This document shows positions 6,256 to 38,486 of a DNA stretch of 45,388 nt, in pieces. The notes under the pieces are model-generated. The model did not search any database. It saw only the letters and a list, made by a program, of their open reading frames with translations, and had not been told where the DNA came from. Location: assembly GCA_964577095.1 (NCBI GenBank), contig CAZNXX010000003.1, positions 1-45,388 on the forward strand, read 5' to 3'. This DNA comes from an uncultured bacterium (GTDB taxonomy: Bacteria; Zhuqueibacterota; QNDG01; DTFT01). The position numbers were made by a program, and so were the translations under genes. Each line of letters begins with the position of its first letter. The first letter of the stretch is position 1.

Positions 6256-7458
6256 TCAGCGGCGGAGGGTTTCCTTGAAGCGACGGGTCAGCTCCGGAAC
6301 GATTTCGAACAGGTCGCCGACCAGTCCGTAGGTCGCCACGTTGAAGATTGGCGCGTCCGGATTCTTGTTGATGGCGACGATGATGTCCGAGGACGACATG
6401 CCGACCAGATGCTGGATCGCGCCTGAAATGCCGCAGGCGAAGTAGATTTTGGGCTTGACCGTCTTGCCCGTCTGTCCGACCTGATGCGAATAGGGCACCC
6501 ATCCGGCGTCCACGGCCGCGCGCGACGCGCCCACCGCGCCGCCCAGCGCCTTGGCCAGTTCGCCGAGCATGGCGAAGTGCTCCGGCCCCTTCAGCCCCCG
6601 CCCCCCCGCCACGATGACGTCCGCCTCGACGATGTTCACCGTTTCCTCGAGTTCCTTGACCGTTTCCAGCACGGTCGTGCGGGCCGCAAGGTCCGCGTCC
6701 GCGACGGGCACCCGGACCAGCGTGCCGGCCGGCCGGTCCGGATCCTCGGGCGCCTCCTCCATGACCTTGTGCCGCACCGTGGCCATCTGGGGCCGATGAT
6801 GCTCGCATTTGATGGTGGCCATGATATTGCCGCCGAAAGCGGGCCGCGTCTGCAGGAGGAGCCCGGTGGATGGGTCGATTTCAAGGCCCGTGCAGTCGGC
6901 CGTGAGCCCGGTCGGCACCTGGACGGCTGTCCGCGGGATCAGCGATCGGCCGATCGAAGTGGCGCCGGTGAGCACGATTTCCGGCTTGTATTCCCGGATC
7001 ATCCGCGTCAGGAGGCGGGCGTACGGTTCATCCCGGTAGTCGCGGAGCCCGGGGTGGTCCGCCAGGTAGACCTTGTCCGCGCCGCGCCGGAACAGAAGCC
7101 CGGCCTGCTCCTCCACGCCGGAACCGATCAGCACGGCCGCGAGCTCGCATCCTCGGGCGGCCGCCAGCCCGCGGCCCGCGCCCAGGAGCTCGAACACCAC
7201 GGACTGTATCTCGCCGCCGCGCTGTTCCGCGAACACCCAGACGCCGTTGCTGTCACCGGCAGCCCCGGCAGGCCGTCCGCCGCGGTCCAGGACAATGGCC
7301 TCGACCGGGCAGGGCTCCACGCACGCGCCGCACAGGGTGCATTTGGAAAGATCGATCACGGCCAGCTTGCCCCGCATTTCAATGGCGCCGAAGGGACAGA
7401 CTTTGACGCATTTTTTACAGCCGATGCACTTGTCCTCGATCACCTGAATGGGTGCCAC
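6256..7458 (-). CDS. etfA: Electron transfer flavoprotein alpha subunit with N-terminal 2x[4Fe-4S] ferredoxin domain
   Basis: 400 aa. [12 protein letters not shown] and [12 protein letters not shown] clusters precede the EtfA fold (..[15 protein letters not shown]..). GTG start at 7458 with AGGAGA 7 nt upstream. Confidence 0.9.
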
Positions 7459-7566
7459 GGATGCTTCTCCTAGAATGAATAGTTTTCAGTCTTCAGGGAT
7501 GGAATCATACCGGAAGACGCCCCGGCGTCTTCCTTCTCAGTGCCATGCGGTTCCGGCCTTCGCGCC

Positions 7567-8358
7567 TCAGGGCCCGAACAGCTGGTCCTCGGCCGCGGCC
7601 TTCACGAAAGCCTCGACGACCTGGGCGGTTTCGCCCTCGAATTTCCGGCCGCCGGTCCGGGCCGGGGGCGTGAATATTTTGTGGACATAGGTCGGCGAGC
7701 CCTTGAGCCCGATGCGTTCGGGGTCCGAGCCCGTTTCCTGAACGGTCCAGGTGGGGATGACGGCTTTCTTCGAGGTCATGACGCCCCGAAGGGAGGGCAG
7801 GCGGGGTTCGTTGATGCCCTTGACCACGGAGATCAGGCAGGGCAGGGACGATTCCACCACGTCGAACCCGTCTTCGGTCATCCGCTCCGCGACGATTTTT
7901 TCTGCGGAAAGCTCGCGTATCGCGCGCACGAAAATGATCTGGGGAATGTCGAGCAGGGCCGCGATGCCCGGCCCCACCTGGGCAGTGTCCCCGTCCACGG
8001 CCTGCTTGCCGCACAGGATCAGGTCAAAGGCGCCGACTTTGCGGATGGCCTGGGCCAGGGTGTTCGATGTCGCGAGCGTGTCGGCCCCGGCGAAAGCGCG
8101 GTCGGACAGCAGAATGCCCTCGTCCGCGCCCACCGCGATCGCGTCGCGGAGCACTTGGACGGCCTGGGGCGGCCCCATGGTGAGCGCCGTCACCTTGCCG
8201 CCGCGCTTTTCCTTGATTCGGACCGCCTCTTCGACCGCATACGCGTCGAATGGATTGAGAACGGCCGCGACGCCCTGGCGCACCAGGGTGTTGGTCGCCG
8301 GGTCGATTTTCACGTCCGTGGTGTCCGGGACCTGCTTGACGCAGACGATGAGATTCAT
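7567..8358 (-). CDS. etfB: Electron transfer flavoprotein beta subunit
   Basis: 263 aa, MNLIVCVKQVPDTTDVKIDP.., typical EtfB. ATG preceded by GAGG. Confidence 0.9.
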   Translation of the reverse strand: MNLIVCVKQVPDTTDVKIDPATNTLVRQGVAAVLNPFDAYAVEEAVRIKEKRGGKVTALTMGPPQAVQVLRDAIAVGADEGILLSDRAFAGADTLATSNTLAQAIRKVGAFDLILCGKQAVDGDTAQVGPGIAALLDIPQIIFVRAIRELSAEKIVAERMTEDGFDVVESSLPCLISVVKGINEPRLPSLRGVMTSKKAVIPTWTVQETGSDPERIGLKGSPTYVHKIFTPPARTGGRKFEGETAQVVEAFVKAAAEDQLFGP

Positions 8359-8368
8359 GGAGACCTCA

Positions 8369-8417
8369 GTTCATAGTTCATAGTTCATGGTTCATGGTTC
8401 ATGGTTCATGGTTCATG
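8369..8417. repeat. Tandem heptamer array, 7 x GTTCAT(A/G)
   Basis: Read directly: 2 x GTTCATA then 5 x GTTCATG, head to tail, ending 10 nt from the etfB start codon. Confidence 0.95.
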
Positions 8418-8456
8418 GTCGAAAGAGAAAAGATGGTACCGTTTTCATCTGCTTTC

Positions 8457-8481
8457 AACTATGAACTATGAACCATGAACA
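8457..8481. repeat. Tandem heptamer array, about 3.5 x ATGAAC(T/C/A); inverted partner of 8369-8417
   Basis: AACT ATGAACT ATGAACC ATGAACA is the complement of GTTCATR units, 39 nt from the left arm. Confidence 0.95.
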
Positions 8482-8515
8482 TCCGATCGATCGGCCATCA
8501 TCAATCGAATAGGGA

Positions 8516-10138
8516 TTACTTTTTCATGTACCGGACGCTGAATGCGGGGATCAGCGGCTCTTTCGGCGCCGAAGCCTCGGCTGGCCCGCTGCCCACCTGT
8601 ATGTCCGCCGCGGACGTCTCGTACCGCATGCTCGGCCACCACGACACTTCGATCCGCACCGTGTAACGCCCGGACGGGACACGTTTCCCGCGGCGGTCCA
8701 GCAGATCCCAGGAATACGAATGCTTCCCCCAATCGATGCTCGCGCCGGTGACGCCGTCTGTGTCCTCGAATTTCGTGCGTTCCGCGAACTCCGGAAGATC
8801 GACCTGTTTCTCCTTCGCGAAACCGGAAAAACCGGAGACATACAGCGTCCGGACGTGCCGGCCCGAGGCGTCCTCCACCCAGACCGCGGTCTGGGGCTCG
8901 AGTTCGTCCTGAAAACCGAGATGGAAGGAAACCGCGACCCGTTCGCCCGAGGCCGCGGGCTTTGGATTCTCACGCAATCCGAATTCCCGGTATACGGAAG
9001 CGACCTGGGGCGCATCCGGACTGTTTTTCGCGAGCCCGGCCCAGACGCCCCTCCCCTTCTTCCGGTATCCGAAACCCAGCTGATACGCGGCTTCGGCCTG
9101 CAGGGAATCGGGCAGGTTCGGGTTCTTCGTCAGTTTTTCGAGAATGGCCAGCCCCTCGTCGATCCTGCCGACAAAAAACGGCATACCGACGCACACACTC
9201 GCGTACGCAAGCTGTATGGCCGGATCATCCGGGACGCGCCGGGCTGCGGTTTCCAGCACGCGGGCAACCTCGAAAGCCAGGTTGGTCCGCCAGTTCTGGT
9301 CCGCGTAAATCCGCTGATCATACCCGAAATCCGCCTCCGCTCCGAGCGCTCGGGCGAGCAGGAGTATGGATTCCACATCCGTCGTGTCCAGGCGCACGGC
9401 CCGGCGCAGCAGATCTGCGGCTTCGGCCCATCGACCCGCCGCAACCGCCGCCCTCCCTTTGGCCTTCAGGGACGCGGCGTTTTCCGCTTCCGCCGGAACA
9501 GGCTTCGCGGCCGGAACGGCAGGCGCCGCTTTCAGGCCGGCCAGTCCTTTTTTCGCGGCCGCCGCGTTCTCGCCATCGGGTTCGAGTGACAGGGTCTTTT
9601 CCCAGGCGGCCCGCGCCTCTTCCGACCGTCCGGCTGCCAGGTAGGCCTGTCCGAGAAAACGGTGCAGCACGGCCGTCTGGGCCGGGGGATGGGATCCGGG
9701 ATTCCGTTCGGCCAGCGATTTCGCGGTTTCCAGGTGAAGGAGACCGGCCTCCTGCTTTCCGAACAAAGGAGGTACGCTGACCGCGAACGCGCCGTAATAG
9801 AGATGTGCGTCGAAGTGGCCCGGATCCAGCTTCGTCGCGCGGTCCAGTTCCGCGAATGCCTCGATGACGTTCGCCATGGCGCCGGAAAAATCCCCGGCTT
9901 CCGCTTGTTTTCCCGAGAACTCCCCCAGGGATTCGGCCAGCCGGTAATGGGCGTCCGCGTTTTCCGGCAGGGCATCCGCTGCCTGCCGGAGGACGAACAC
10001 CGCCTCCTTGAACTTGCCCTGGGCTTTCAATCCCGCCGATTCTGTCAAGGCATTCTCAAGCACGGCCTGGCCGCCGATCGCGGTTCCCGCCAGAAAAAGC
10101 GCGGCCGCGCCACAGATCCGAATCAATGCTTTTTTCAT
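8516..10138 (-). CDS. Secreted TPR-repeat protein with C-terminal Ig-like (FlgD-Ig/DUF2271-like) domain
   Basis: 540 aa. Signal peptide MKKALIRICGAAALFLAGTAIGG. Ala/Leu-rich TPR-like repeats. C-terminal ..YSWDLLDRRGKRVPSGRYTVRIEV.. beta-sandwich-like segment. GGGAGGA RBS. Confidence 0.6.
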   Translation of the reverse strand: MKKALIRICGAAALFLAGTAIGGQAVLENALTESAGLKAQGKFKEAVFVLRQAADALPENADAHYRLAESLGEFSGKQAEAGDFSGAMANVIEAFAELDRATKLDPGHFDAHLYYGAFAVSVPPLFGKQEAGLLHLETAKSLAERNPGSHPPAQTAVLHRFLGQAYLAAGRSEEARAAWEKTLSLEPDGENAAAAKKGLAGLKAAPAVPAAKPVPAEAENAASLKAKGRAAVAAGRWAEAADLLRRAVRLDTTDVESILLLARALGAEADFGYDQRIYADQNWRTNLAFEVARVLETAARRVPDDPAIQLAYASVCVGMPFFVGRIDEGLAILEKLTKNPNLPDSLQAEAAYQLGFGYRKKGRGVWAGLAKNSPDAPQVASVYREFGLRENPKPAASGERVAVSFHLGFQDELEPQTAVWVEDASGRHVRTLYVSGFSGFAKEKQVDLPEFAERTKFEDTDGVTGASIDWGKHSYSWDLLDRRGKRVPSGRYTVRIEVSWWPSMRYETSAADIQVGSGPAEASAPKEPLIPAFSVRYMKK

Positions 10139-10149
10139 GATTCCTCCCT

Positions 10150-10947
10150 TCAGGGACCCGGCGCCGCTCCGGCGGCGGGCCCGGTGATGCGGAAAAACAG
10201 GCGCAGTCCGGCGTAGGTCAGTATCAGCCCCGCGATAAAGCAGACGGGCGACACATGGTCACGATACACGTACCATTGGAGTTTGGACTCGTCGAGGTTG
10301 ATGAAGAGCATGGAGACCGCGTTGTTCAGGCCGTGAATGACCACGCCGGGCCATATACTCCGGCCGCGCCAGGCCAGAATGCCCAGCACGACACCGAGCG
10401 CGAAAATCTGGAAGGTCCACCAGGGGTTGAAATGCAGAAAGGCGAACACGGCCGCGGTCACGCCGATGGCCTTGCCCGGCGGGCCGCTGCGCTCCAGCGA
10501 CGTCTGCAGGAAACCGCGGAACAGCATTTCCTCGACCACGCCGGCGACGATCACGGTCATCAGGACGACGAGCGCGGCCTCGCCAAGACTGTCGACCGTC
10601 ATGAACTCCTTCAGCGCGCGGAGGATGTGCTCGGGCATCGGGACCACGGACTGCACCATGCGGTCGAGCTCGTCCCCGAGTATGCCCACGCCCAGGCCGA
10701 GCGGCACGGAAGCGGCGAGCAGGCCGGGTTTCGCGGGAGAGAGCCGGAACGCCGAACGGAGCGGGTAGCGCCCCAGGACGATGAACAGAAGGGCCGGCGC
10801 GATCAGGCTGAGTTCCATGAGGAGAATCATCGGCTTGCTCTCCGATCCGCCGAACGCCAGCGTGAACCCGACGTAGAGCACGAAAGTCGCCGTGACCACG
10901 GCGAAAACGTCCCGGCTCCGCGGAAACCGTTCCGGTCCGGGGATCAT
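10150..10947 (-). CDS. CPBP family intramembrane glutamic endopeptidase (CAAX protease/Abi)
   Basis: 265 aa from the ATG at 10947 (MIPGPERF..). Motifs VVEEMLFRGFL, FAFLHF and VIHGLNN. The ATGA overlap with the hisS stop suggests translational coupling. The upstream part of ORF 10150..11640 lies out of frame inside hisS and is rejected. Confidence 0.85.
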   Translation of the reverse strand: MIPGPERFPRSRDVFAVVTATFVLYVGFTLAFGGSESKPMILLMELSLIAPALLFIVLGRYPLRSAFRLSPAKPGLLAASVPLGLGVGILGDELDRMVQSVVPMPEHILRALKEFMTVDSLGEAALVVLMTVIVAGVVEEMLFRGFLQTSLERSGPPGKAIGVTAAVFAFLHFNPWWTFQIFALGVVLGILAWRGRSIWPGVVIHGLNNAVSMLFINLDESKLQWYVYRDHVSPVCFIAGLILTYAGLRLFFRITGPAAGAAPGP

Positions 10948-16739: not shown

Positions 16740-16744
16740 GAGAA

Positions 16745-16800
16745 GTTCCGAGTTCCGAGTTCCGAGTTCCGAGTTCCGAGTTCCAGAATTCGAGTTTTAG
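16745..16800. repeat. Tandem heptamer array, 5 x GTTCCGA plus 3 degenerate units
   Basis: GTTCCGA x5 (16745-16779), then GTTCCAG, AATTCGA and GTTTTAG. It starts 6 nt after the DinB stop. Confidence 0.95.
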
Positions 16801-16973
16801 TTGTTGGGCCGATACACATAGTCCATTTTCACCAAGGGAATCGCATACTGGGCTCCTCATGGAATAGCTCCGACGATTCCCCCGAATTTTCCAACTCAGC
16901 ATGACCATCCGACGATCAACTATGCGTCGCCATCGCATGTGCGGGATCATCGTGGTTCTCCGTCTTCGTATGC

Positions 16974-17017
16974 AAATAAAAACGCTCCGGAAGGTTTCTA
17001 TCCTCCTGGAGCGTTTT
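16974..17017. terminator. Bidirectional rho-independent terminator between convergent genes
   Basis: AAAACGCTCC (16979-16988) pairs with GGAGCGTTTT (17008-17017). An A-run lies upstream and a T-run downstream, so it reads as hairpin plus U-tract on both strands. Confidence 0.65.
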
Positions 17018-17058
17018 ACATTGAATCCTGTTTAACGACGGACTAACTCTCTCCACCC

Positions 17059-17093
17059 GGAACTCGGAACCCGGAACCCGGAACCCTGAACCG
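17059..17093. repeat. Tandem heptamer array, 5 x CGGAAC(C/T)-type; inverted partner of 16745-16800
   Basis: CGGAACT CGGAACC CGGAACC CGGAACC CTGAACC is the complement of GTTCCGR units. It ends 3 nt from the stop of the minus-strand NDK-like gene. Confidence 0.95.
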
Positions 17094-22083: not shown

Positions 22084-22899
22084 CTACATCAGACCCATGC
22101 GCTCCAGCGCGTTTTTCGCGGCGGCCTGTTCCGCCTTCTTCTTGCTGTTCCCGTTTCCGGACCCCACCACCTGCGACCGCACGACCACCTCGATCGTGAA
22201 GACCTTCGCATGGTCGGGCCCGGACTCGGACGCCACCCGGTACAGCGGCGCCCGGCCGCCTTCGCTCTGGACATGCTCGAGCAGCCAGCTCTTGTAGTTC
22301 TGCTGCTGCTTGTAGTCCACGAACTTGCCGATGCGCTTGAAAAGCCCGCCCGACGTGAATCGCCGCGCGGCCTCGATGCCGCCGTCCAGATAGATGGCGC
22401 CCAGCAGGGCCTCGTACCCGTCCGCGAGAATCGAATGCCGCCTGCGTCCTCCGGACTGCTCCTCGCCCGGGCCGAGAATGAGGGCGTCGCCGAGCCCGAT
22501 GCGCAGCGCTTCCTCGGCGAGCCGCTCACGGCTCACGACGTGCGATTTCACCCGCGTCAGGGTGCCCTCGGTCCCGTCCGGGAACCGGCGGTACAGCTCC
22601 TCGCTCATGAGCAGGCCGAGCACCGCGTCCCCGAGAAACTCGAGCCGCTCGTTCGAAGCGGAGGTGTGGCGGTTCTTGGCGAGGCAGGACCGGTGCGACA
22701 GCGCGCGCTCCAGGTGGGAGGGGTCGCGGAACCGGTACTCCAGGCGCGCCGCCAATCCGGACGCGGACAGGGGGCCGCGTCTCTGCGGCACGGCCGGCGC
22801 ATTCGGTTTCCGTCCCCGGTCCGGGGCGCGGTCCGGAGGCGGCGGGCCGGCCGGCTTCTTCCGGAACGCGGCCCATAGACGTCGGATCAGGGGGATCAA
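22084..22899 (-). CDS. rnc: Ribonuclease III
   Basis: RNase III signature ..NERLEFLGDAVLG.. and a C-terminal dsRBD (..GPDHAKVFTIEV..GSGNGNSKKKAEQAAA..). The longest ORF starts at TTG 22899. An alternative GTG at 22791 would remove a Pro/Arg-rich leader. Confidence 0.85.
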   Translation of the reverse strand: MIPLIRRLWAAFRKKPAGPPPPDRAPDRGRKPNAPAVPQRRGPLSASGLAARLEYRFRDPSHLERALSHRSCLAKNRHTSASNERLEFLGDAVLGLLMSEELYRRFPDGTEGTLTRVKSHVVSRERLAEEALRIGLGDALILGPGEEQSGGRRRHSILADGYEALLGAIYLDGGIEAARRFTSGGLFKRIGKFVDYKQQQNYKSWLLEHVQSEGGRAPLYRVASESGPDHAKVFTIEVVVRSQVVGSGNGNSKKKAEQAAAKNALERMGLM

Positions 22900-31564: not shown

Positions 31565-31603
31565 TTTATTTTTTCCGGTAGCCGCAGCCTTCAGGCTGCG
31601 CTC

Positions 31604-31698
31604 GTTCAGTTTATAGTTCAAGGTTCAAAGTTCAAAGAAAAAAAGTTCATGGTTCAAGGTAAAAGAAGTTCCGGGTTCCGGGCTCCGAGTTCCGGGTT
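31604..31698. repeat. Compound tandem heptamer array (GTTCAAR, GTTCATG, GTTCCGG variants)
   Basis: GTTCAGT..GTTCAAG GTTCAAA GTTCAAA G(A)7 GTTCATG GTTCAAG..GTTCCGG GTTCCGG GCTCCGA GTTCCGG GTTAATA. Confidence 0.9.
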
Positions 31699-31735
31699 AA
31701 TAAGAAATCGACATCGTCAATCGACTGTCGTACAT

Positions 31736-32014
31736 CATGAGTGTCCGGTTAAAATGGAGACAGTCTATTTTATACTTCAGTGTCCATTCGATTTAACATC
31801 TGAATAATCAGAAACGACTAAGAATCATGATCCATTATAAGATTGTCCGGGTAGACAATGGGTGTCTTCGCGAGGGACTCCGCGATGCGGAGTCCCGAAG
31901 CGATCTCGGCTGTTTTTTTTTGAGATTGCCACGCCCCGCTGCGCGGGGCTCGCAATGACACACTCCTTTTCATGACTGGTACAAAATTACTATTCATTTA
32001 ACCGGGCACTCATG
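31736..32014. mobile_element. Foldback / MITE-like element with 18-bp terminal inverted repeats
   Basis: CATGAGTGTCCGGTTAAA (31736-31753) matches the reverse complement of TTTAACCGGGCACTCATG (31997-32014) at 17/18. The AT-rich interior has two GC hairpins (31874-31896 GGGACTCCGC-GAT-GCGGAGTCCC; 31932-31948 GCCCCGC-TGC-GCGGGGC) and a T9 run (31913-31921). No ORF. Confidence 0.5.
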
Positions 32015-32084
32015 GTAGTACATCGTCGGTGAATGACCGTATCGTGAGGACGGGGATTCCCATAGGCCGGGATGAAGCTCAACA

Positions 32085-32142
32085 CGGAAACCGGAACTCC
32101 CAACATTCTCAACCCGGAACCCGGAACTCGGAACCCTGAACT
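32085..32142. repeat. Tandem heptamer array, CGGAAC(C/T)-type; inverted partner of 31668-31695
   Basis: CGGAAAC CGGAACT ... CGGAACC CGGAACT CGGAACC CTGAACT. It overlaps the last codons and the stop (32109-32111) of the fumarate hydratase beta gene. Confidence 0.9.
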
Positions 32143-32693
32143 CTGTACTTCTCCACCCCTTCCCGGTACAGGTCCCCCCCGTGGCAGTCGTTGACGACGA
32201 CCAGCGGCATGTCCTCCACCTCGAGCCTGTACACGGCCTCCGGGCCGAGGTCCTCATACGCGATCAGCACGGACCGCTTCACGGTTCCGGCGTAGAGCGC
32301 GGCCGCGCCGCCTGTCGCGGCGAAATACACTGCGCCGCAGCGTGTCATCGCCTCTGTGATTTCCGGGGACCGGTTGCCTTTTCCGATCATGCCTTTCAGC
32401 CCGCGCTCGAGCAGGGGCAACGTGTACGGGTCCATGCGGTAGCTCGAAGTGGGGCCGATGGGCCCGATGACCCGGCCCGGGGCCGCGGGCACGGGGCCCG
32501 CGTAGAAGAGCACCTGCCCGGCCAGTCCGAACGGCAGGGGTTCGTCCTGCCGTATCCTTTCGGCCATGCGCTGATGCGCGGCGTCGCGCGCCGTGTACAC
32601 CGTGCCCGAGAGCAGGACGAGATCCCCGCTCCGCAGGCTCGCGGTTTCGGACTCTCCCAGCGGAGTGCGGATCCGTTTGGCCGGGCCGCTCAC
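32109..32693 (-). CDS. Class I (Fe-S) fumarate hydratase / tartrate dehydratase-type hydrolyase, beta subunit
   Basis: 194 aa from the GTG at 32693 (GTGA overlap with the alpha stop). ..SGTVYTARDAAHQRM.., ..GPIGPTSSYRMDPY.. and ..MIGKGNRS... The C-terminal tail ..SEFRVPG is encoded by the heptamer array. Confidence 0.85.
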   Translation of the reverse strand: MSGPAKRIRTPLGESETASLRSGDLVLLSGTVYTARDAAHQRMAERIRQDEPLPFGLAGQVLFYAGPVPAAPGRVIGPIGPTSSYRMDPYTLPLLERGLKGMIGKGNRSPEITEAMTRCGAVYFAATGGAAALYAGTVKRSVLIAYEDLGPEAVYRLEVEDMPLVVVNDCHGGDLYREGVEKYRVQGSEFRVPG

Positions 32694-38438: not shown

Positions 38439-38486
38439 ACGTTAACACGTTAGCACGTTAGCACGTTTGAACGTTATAACGTGTCA
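38439..38486. repeat. Six tandem 8-bp repeats ACGTTNNN
   Basis: ACGTTAAC ACGTTAGC ACGTTAGC ACGTTTGA ACGTTATA ACGTGTCA. The array overlaps the stop codon of the protease gene. Confidence 0.9.

Follow-up and report, generated by a model that had tools for sequence, protein, structure and literature searches.

Directly upstream of the ribosome-binding site of etfB, in a 45,388-nucleotide stretch of DNA from an uncultured bacterium (the whole stretch that was analysed, hereafter the 'window'), a run of tandem heptamers faces its own inverted copy across a short interval. The question raised by this placement is whether the resulting foldback serves etfB, as a leader device of the kind proposed in a first-pass annotation, or whether it is one instance of something more general that has come to lie there. 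The parts of the locus, in window coordinates, are as follows.

6256-7458: etfA, fused to a ferredoxin domain, following etfB.
7567-8358, minus strand: etfB, the beta subunit of electron-transfer flavoprotein (Pfam ETF, E 1e-49).
8356-8367, minus strand: the etfB start codon (8356-8358) and Shine-Dalgarno sequence GAGG (8364-8367; CCTC on the plus strand).
8369-8419, plus strand: left arm, (GTTCATA)2(GTTCATG)5 and a partial unit; in the minus-strand etfB mRNA this is the 3' arm, (YAUGAAC)7.
8420-8456, no strand assigned: loop or spacer of unique sequence, both ends of which (GTCGAAAG / CTTTCAAC) extend the stem in the fold.
8457-8481, minus strand: right arm, with 3.4 copies of GTTCATR when read on the minus strand; the 5' arm in the mRNA.
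8482-8515, minus strand: spacer that separates the TPR stop codon from the 5' arm, with a small predicted 11-base-pair hairpin.
8516-10138, minus strand: the upstream gene, for a protein with TPR and DUF2271 domains (stop codon TAA at 8516-8518).

The foldback itself is real. Tandem Repeats Finder returns a period of 7 for both arms, with 7.3 copies, 97% matches and the consensus GTTCATG at 8369-8419, and 3.4 copies of the reverse-complementary unit, with 94% matches, at 8457-8480; the spacer between them measures 37-39 nt, depending on how the partial units are cut. Read in the sense of the mRNA (minus strand), the 157-nt interval between the TPR gene and etfB runs from the TPR stop codon through 35 nt to (GUUCAUR)3.4, the loop, (YAUGAAC)7, a single U, GAGG and the etfB AUG, such that the 5' arm begins approximately 35 nt past the stop codon. 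The distance of 10 nt between array and ATG that had been given originally is correct (the array starts at 8369, the ATG occupies 8356-8358); that to the Shine-Dalgarno sequence had been put at 4 nt and is in fact 1 nt (GAGG at 8364-8367). The etfB start is backed by orthologues of 95-97% identity, aligned over residues 1-263, and the four species of the genus all keep the motif CUGAGGnnUCCAUG at this start.

Searches aimed at the locus itself returned little. All families fell below threshold in an Rfam scan of the whole window, a promoter and terminator consensus scan over 7400-10400 placed none in the TPR-etfB spacer, and the loop, when compared by BLAST with the whole genome, matched only itself. 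There is no contig on record that encodes an identical EtfB protein, and two metagenome scans, which used the loop and the conserved flank at the etfB start as queries, gave no matches. A MITE at the etfB locus was considered and rejected, as the loop is single-copy and the junctions show no visible direct duplications.

Folded as RNA, the region 8355-8520 of the minus strand reaches -54.7 kcal/mol (z -5.9), with 0 of 200 shuffles as stable; the plus strand reaches -59.6 kcal/mol (z -5.7), the antisense strand thus being more stable than the mRNA sense. No more than 2% of the ensemble is in the minimum-energy structure, and the centroid lies in another register, from which we conclude that the slipped registers of the stem are real. 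A strong stem with several such registers had been anticipated, and this very fold suggested as a check; the outcome supports it, in that z is about -5.8, far below the shuffles, and alternative registers are present.

The wider setting is provided by the window's own genome (G000), a 3.54-Mb draft of 413 contigs with 61% G+C and an estimated completeness of 96.7%. Taking an array to be at least three phased GTTCNNN units, we find 219 of them, where fewer than one would be expected in the whole 3.54 Mb. The commonest units are GTTCCGG/GTTCCGA, followed by GTTCATA/GTTCATG and then GTTCAAA/GTTCAAG. Four units is the modal length (97 of the 219 arrays) and three units account for another 76, such that the seven-unit left arm at etfB falls within the longest 5% of the genome's arrays and is a length outlier in its family. 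The majority of the arrays (189/219) lie mainly outside predicted genes. The assembly is fragmented, with contigs broken at repeats, and 19 arrays have a contig end within 150 nt. Two further members of the family are present in the window.

16744-17092, no strand assigned: (AGTTCCG)7.6 and (YCGGAAC)5, with an interior of 258-276 nt; the first array begins 5 nt past one stop codon and the second stops 4 nt short of the stop codon of the convergent gene.
31604-32148, no strand assigned: a compound array of GTTCAAR, then GTTCATG, then GTTCCGG units, opposite which lies an inverted arm of the GTTCCGG type; an unrelated repeated element occupies the interior.

Beyond this genome, a four-unit pattern gave 130-185 matches in each of the three other species of the genus (G001, G002 and G003) and 24 in the sister genus (G004), these being related genomes and not independent samples; among 36 more distant relatives, 32 had none or one and four had 7 to 21. 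The next-nearest relatives of EtfB, at 63-70% identity, include Victivallales, Verrucomicrobiota, Kiritimatiellia, Planctomycetia and Omnitrophota genomes, and the host is an uncultured lineage, apparently near the PVC group.

The arrays are arranged with a fixed polarity. There are 48-49 close pairs of the form (GTTCNNN)n...(NNNGAAC)n in G000, their arms about 9-80 nt or 130-480 nt apart; pairs in the reverse order are all separated by at least 547 nt. As each order is its own reverse complement, this polarity is a true asymmetry, and since the reverse order would fold equally well, it is not explained by stem stability alone. The two arms share a unit type in 41 of 48 pairs, as against 24.6 expected, a figure reached in 0 of 10,000 shuffles. 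Short loops, that of etfB included, are single-copy sequence; long 'loops' contain other repeat families. For about half of the arrays that seem solitary, a decayed partner is present. About a quarter of all arrays have no recognisable partner arm and still keep the rule of orientation and stop codon described below, with 11 3' ends of genes on the near side and 0 on the far side.

The position of the arrays relative to genes was assessed with a crude gene caller of our own, the rough calls of which amount to 2868 genes and a coding fraction of 88%. With arrays oriented as GTTCNNN, a gene end lies within 15 nt on the upstream side in 69 cases, and in 63 of these it is a stop codon; on the downstream side there are almost no gene ends at this distance. 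The usual junction is a stop codon, an A-rich spacer of 0-8 nt, (GTTCNNN)n and then GTT[AG]AAA. Sense-orientation arrays within 15 nt after a stop codon number 53, as against 7.5 expected from random intergenic placement (at most 18 in 1000 trials), whereas arrays at the 5' ends of genes are not enriched over such placement (6 observed, 7.5 expected). Arrays are twice as numerous as expected in convergent gaps, and in divergent gaps they number 15 as against 27 expected. A 400-kb sample of G003, a better-assembled genome, with 45 arrays in the sample, behaves in the same manner: it has 12 pairs in the usual order and no close pair in the reverse order, and gene ends on the upstream side of arrays (13 3', or stop, ends and four 5', or start, ends) with none on the downstream side. 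Approximately ten other members of the family fill co-directional gaps in the way that the etfB foldback does, and several of them abut the Shine-Dalgarno sequences of unrelated genes. The etfB foldback is therefore better read as an ordinary post-stop-codon element in a co-directional gap, the unusually long far arm of which touches the etfB Shine-Dalgarno sequence.

Comparison between species separates the history of the array from that of the hairpin. At the etfB site an array starts directly after the conserved CAT-GGAnnCCTC-A in four of four species of the genus; the site in the sister genus has no array.

G000: (GTTCATA)2(GTTCATG)5, with an inverted arm.
G001: (GTTCAAA)3, then one GTTCCGG.
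G002: GTTCAAR units, then (GTTCCGN)4, then (GTTCAAR)3.
G003: decayed GTTCATG units, then (GTTCCGN)4.

Folded as mRNA, the TPR-etfB spacer of G000 has a z of -5.0, and those of the three sister species have z values of -0.6, 0.0 and +1.0. With arrays in all four species and a significant fold in G000 alone, the array is old at this site and the hairpin is not conserved. The proposal that the array varies in copy number holds as a difference between sister species, where the type of unit differs as well as the number.

The same turnover is seen across the genome. At 17 syntenic array loci of G003, the flanking genes of which are 82-96% identical, 14 also have an array in G000, and the unit has mostly been switched on both arms, from GTTCATR in G003 to GTTCCGR in G000. 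Counts of patterns three units long, both strands summed, are as follows.

G000: GTTCCGN 215, GTTCATN 90, GTTCAAN 18.
G001: GTTCCGN 48, GTTCATN 21, GTTCAAN 169.
G002: GTTCCGN 67, GTTCATN 4, GTTCAAN 135.
G003: GTTCCGN 51, GTTCATN 243, GTTCAAN 12.
G004: GTTCCGN 1, GTTCATN 0, GTTCAAN 0.

The dominant unit is thus GTTCCGN in G000, GTTCAAN in G001 and G002, and GTTCATN in G003. A dominant unit that is specific to each species requires replacement or conversion among the dispersed copies, and could not be produced by independent point mutation; the swapped units on both arms at orthologous loci show concerted evolution on the scale of the whole genome.

A protein-coding gene is embedded in some of these elements. 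Three matches to PF05635 (23S_rRNA_IVP, or S23p), a four-helix-bundle family, were found in G000, one of which (G000:C320:2363-2530) starts 27 nt past a GTTCCGG array that itself follows a stop codon; the contig ends within the gene. At the same locus in G003 (G003:C5:127814-128337; L119 1407-1930) a homologue of 136 residues lies in a co-directional gap between (GTTCATR)4 and (YATGAAC)4, and is 46% identical to the G000 protein over the 41 residues assembled there. In the orthologous place in G002 (G002:C202; L120, about 1328-1875) a gene 95% identical to the G000 fragment sits inside (GTTCCGR)4 arms. At the G003 locus, the stop codon of the upstream gene is provided by the array itself. The sister genus has PF05635 genes that are enclosed or preceded by arrays of a different unit, the GATTNNAA 8-mer, a family that is dispersed in G004 (61 pattern matches) and missing from all four species of the window's genus; among the ten PF05635 matches of G004, GATTNNAA arrays enclose at least one (G004:C306:4769-5452, L122) and precede another. 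The best match of the four-helix-bundle protein among solved structures is 2GSC, XCC0516 of Xanthomonas campestris. The tie between PF05635 genes and arrays is an association only, observed across two genera and two repeat units, and does not amount to evidence of mechanism. The 37-nt etfB loop (8420-8456) has no open reading frame, and hence no PF05635 gene within the arms, such that the etfB copy would be, at most, a gene-less form of an S23p cassette.

The two other PF05635 genes of G000 have repeats of different kinds around them. The second (G000:C68:11167-11900, with orthologues in L121, L123 and L124) has an N-terminal region made from about ten 12-nt tandem repeats, and is followed by a tandem array of the ACGTTNNN 8-mer, a family that also occurs at 38439-38486 of the window. 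The third (G000:C127:100-720, gene at 267-551 on the minus strand) lies inside inverted heptamer repeats of GATTNNN type, with the end sequence GATCTCAGATCAACGATTG mirrored on the opposite side of the gene.

Several known systems bear comparison with this family. REP/BIME elements are species-specific and form hairpins, with hundreds of extragenic copies that lie within operons and at the 3' ends of genes; each REP unit consists of one imperfect palindrome 20-40 nt long, and a RAYT (Y1 transposase) gene is found among the repeats. The GTTCNNN family resembles them in that one protein gene, here that of the four-helix bundle, is embedded among the repeats, but differs in that its arms are tandem heptamers around unique loops of 9-480 nt, with no RAYT near the arrays: of nine PF01797 (Y1 transposase) matches in the genome, none has a GTTCNNN array within 3 kb. 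One Y1-transposase (RAYT-like) gene of G000 (C1:54123-54452, in G000:C1:53861-54833) has palindromes of the GTGCCGGGCAC type on both sides and appears to belong to a REP/RAYT system of its own; the window, too, has a weak Y1_Tnp match (25 bits), at 677-931.

The closest architectural parallel is that of Xanthomonas, where about 186-200 convergent arrays of GGGAATC per genome have a four-unit mode and include 70-75 convergent pairs, with a counterpart in Nostoc built from GGGGAYT, and where the four-unit preference has been put down to G-quadruplex formation (Rehm et al. 2015, PMC4692102). On the coding strand those arrays follow closely upon stop codons, and on the non-coding strand they precede genes; few occur between divergent genes, and their conservation between related species is poor (PMC4692102). 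The 219 arrays described here share with the Xanthomonas and Nostoc arrays the dispersal of 7-mers in non-coding DNA, the four-unit mode, the convergent pairs, the post-stop placement and the scarcity in divergent gaps. They differ in having a unit, GTTCNNN, without G-tracts, and so represent the same architecture outside the quadruplex-forming subclass; they differ also in combining three unit subfamilies, often with AT-rich units outside and GTTCCGR inside, the dominant subfamily depending on the species. As none of GTTCATR, GTTCCGR and GTTCAAR can form a quadruplex, this explanation is ruled out here and the shared architecture needs another; by the same token, its occurrence with such a unit argues against the quadruplex as a general explanation of heptamer arrays.

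In Geobacter metallireducens, classes 1-3 of 'global regulator binding sites' are paired on opposite strands (Aklujkar et al. 2009, PMC2700814). They too are intergenic, each with 3-5 tandem 7-8-mers and at variable distance from its partner, but are built from other units, have fewer copies (8-24 pairs) and come with no reported stop-codon rule; their reading as IHF/HU sites is a hypothesis (PMC2700814). The intervening sequences of 23S rRNA that carry S23p ORFs, in Coxiella and Leptospira, offer a different likeness: that of Coxiella has a 28-bp stem around the ORF, is cut by RNase III and has heptamer repeats beside the ORF (PMC4990558). The gene-bearing copies of G003 and G002 share this layout of a stem around an ORF; unlike the intervening sequences, the GTTCNNN elements lie between protein-coding genes rather than in rRNA, and the etfB copy has no ORF. 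The TAACTGA repeats of marine Beggiatoaceae, cyanobacteria and Bacteroidetes are likewise abundant intergenic tandem heptamers near gene boundaries (MacGregor 2015, PMC4679880), but nearly all of them are direct (one inverted pair in 170 sets) and are found immediately before start codons (PMC4679880), whereas most GTTCNNN arrays are paired and come after stop codons. The etfB element thus belongs to a known, yet unexplained, kind of repeat, of which the lineage and the unit are new.

Other candidates for the unit or its origin were tried and set aside. The alphaproteobacterial LexA box, GTTC-N7-GTTC, has the wrong spacing between its GTTC cores; the tRNA T-loop, GTTCRANYC, is matched by GTTCAAR units alone. 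Templating of the arrays by a reverse transcriptase, whether telomerase-like or of the kind seen in diversity-generating retroelements, is not supported by the genome, which, at 96.7% completeness, has no RVT_1 match. A resemblance in sequence of the four-helix-bundle protein to Avd of diversity-generating retroelements was considered, but a PDB search gave no Avd match even at E = 10, and we therefore do not claim this link.

Synthesising these findings, we favour, with moderate confidence, the reading that the etfB foldback is a gene-less copy of a genus-wide family of convergent tandem heptamers, one that spreads at the level of DNA, has a generic effect on transcripts and has no dedicated role at etfB. 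The arrays settle in intergenic DNA right after stop codons, with fixed polarity, complementary arms and fast turnover, and those of each species are homogenised toward its own dominant unit. We infer that they are made and renewed as DNA, by slippage together with recombination or conversion between dispersed copies, and an S23p-family four-helix-bundle protein, the gene for which lies inside one such foldback, may join in this renewal. If the TPR-etfB spacer is transcribed, pairing of the arms would give a stem, about 20-28 bp long, able to shift register; a stem of this length might be open to generic cleavage by RNase III and might block 3' exonucleases, and its cleavage would part the upstream TPR message from that of etfBA. 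REP hairpins and rRNA intervening sequences separate messages in a like manner, and by this analogy, effects on processing, stability or insulation of the transcript are plausible as generic consequences of the element. The window carries an RNase III gene at 22336-22722 (minus strand), the sole match to the catalytic domain in the genome (PF14622, 116 bits). An intrinsic (Rho-independent) terminator at etfB was rejected: because the 3' arm is followed by UGAGGUCUCCAUG, and not by a U-tract, the stem cannot be read as one, and the spacer has no terminator-like site; across the family, a U-rich tail is present in only about 5 of 17 co-directional members.

Two features count against this reading. 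Partner-less arrays are still placed after stop codons, which a pure hairpin function does not explain, and the 17 co-directional elements give no sign of selection on one strand of RNA, the sense strand being the more stable in only 6 of them and a comparison of G-U with A-C pairs showing no asymmetry (44 as against 50). Nor does the family model that we infer account for the very tight spacing of 0-8 nt between stop codon and array.

We have also entertained the more specific, and doubtful, notion that an S23p-family protein is a trans-acting partner that binds or renews arrays of 7-8-mers, in the way that RAYT does, with its gene sitting inside one 'master' foldback per genome and the etfB foldback being a gene-less dependant. 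Were this to be so, it would explain the homogenisation of units across a species, the fixed polarity and the abundance of heptamer repeats between bacterial genes; found as it is in two genera and with two different repeat units, the embedded four-helix-bundle gene is in any case a testable candidate factor.

Among the alternatives to a DNA-spread family with generic effects, the one that fares best, which we nonetheless consider unlikely, holds that the arrays are double-stranded DNA sites for a lineage-specific protein, of the S23p family or of IHF/HU type, such that the array and not the hairpin is the working unit; this could serve as a roadblock that halts RNA polymerase in one direction at the ends of genes, or as a marker for the organisation of the chromosome. 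It is kept alive by the negative outcome of the one-strand RNA comparison together with the partner-less arrays after stop codons, which keep their orientation and placement (11 3' ends as against 0), and it is favoured further by a pair polarity that is beyond the reach of stem stability alone, by the four-helix-bundle genes embedded in arrays of two genera and by the similar interpretation given to the paired tandem 7-8-mers of Geobacter (PMC2700814). Against it, three unit types coexist in one genome with arms that match in 41 of 48 pairs, which favours base pairing or a templated origin over a single recognition sequence. The wholesale switches of unit between species are a further difficulty, in that any binding protein would have to follow them, and binding has been demonstrated for no protein of the S23p family.

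We think it quite improbable that the arrays are a functionless by-product of replication or repair (slippage, and template switching at hairpins) accumulating in unselected intergenic space, with no RNA effect that is relevant to the cell. Fast turnover, the loss of the hairpin in sister species, neighbouring genes of all kinds and co-directional gaps that are filled from the stop codon nearly to the next start would all be in keeping with such an origin; a mere filling of space, however, predicts neither the seven-fold excess at stop codons without an excess at start codons, nor the strict polarity, nor a four-unit mode that is common to Xanthomonas with its unrelated unit, nor homogenisation of the arrays throughout the genome of a species. 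A dedicated etfB leader or contingency (phase-variable) locus, in which slippage of the seven-unit arm would tune the context of the ribosome-binding site and hence the expression of EtfBA, as first proposed, is very unlikely and its etfB-specific regulatory reading weak: only 1 nt separates the arm from the Shine-Dalgarno sequence, its length is exceptional within the family and its position is kept in four species, but it lies upstream of that sequence, so that gain or loss of units leaves the spacing to the AUG unchanged, which is not the behaviour of a phase-variable locus, and it is one of 219 arrays, has no significant fold in the spacers of three sister species and belongs to a family that is not enriched at 5' ends and has other members abutting the Shine-Dalgarno sequences of unrelated genes.

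For annotation, foldbacks such as that of etfB, lying beside a ribosome-binding site, should not be taken as gene-specific regulators. Few features of bacterial intergenic DNA that lack an explanation are as common as tandem heptamer repeats, and the lineage with GTTCNNN arrays offers a clean natural experiment, with the architecture of the Xanthomonas repeats and a unit that cannot form a quadruplex. The swaps of unit across sister species call for a mechanism.

The intergenic regions of G000 are, more broadly, mosaics of repeats. The interior of the third locus in the window (31736-32014) is an AT-rich repeated element with partial copies, 72-93% identical, on contigs C9, C66, C13, C136 and others, in agreement with the MITE-like character that had been ascribed to it. 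Small repeat families are often found just inside heptamer arrays (GGTAGCCGCAGCCTTCAGGCTGCG, TGTAGGTCCGAAATGCCGAG..., GGTGTCATTCCCGAA...TCGGGAATCCAGGG and CCCCGGATCAAGTCCGGGGCA), for instance at 31577-31600 of the window and at C8:8597, C105:3300, C135:4530 and other sites in G000. Where an arm is made of two types, the AT-rich unit (GTTCATR or GTTCAAR) is nearly always the outer one, on the side of the gene, and GTTCCGR the inner, an order that could reflect nested insertion or successive waves; examples in G000 are C8:31954-32031, C34:68-110, C160:254-320, C193:1732-1800 and 31604-31698 of the window, and a counter-example is C18:5450-5530.
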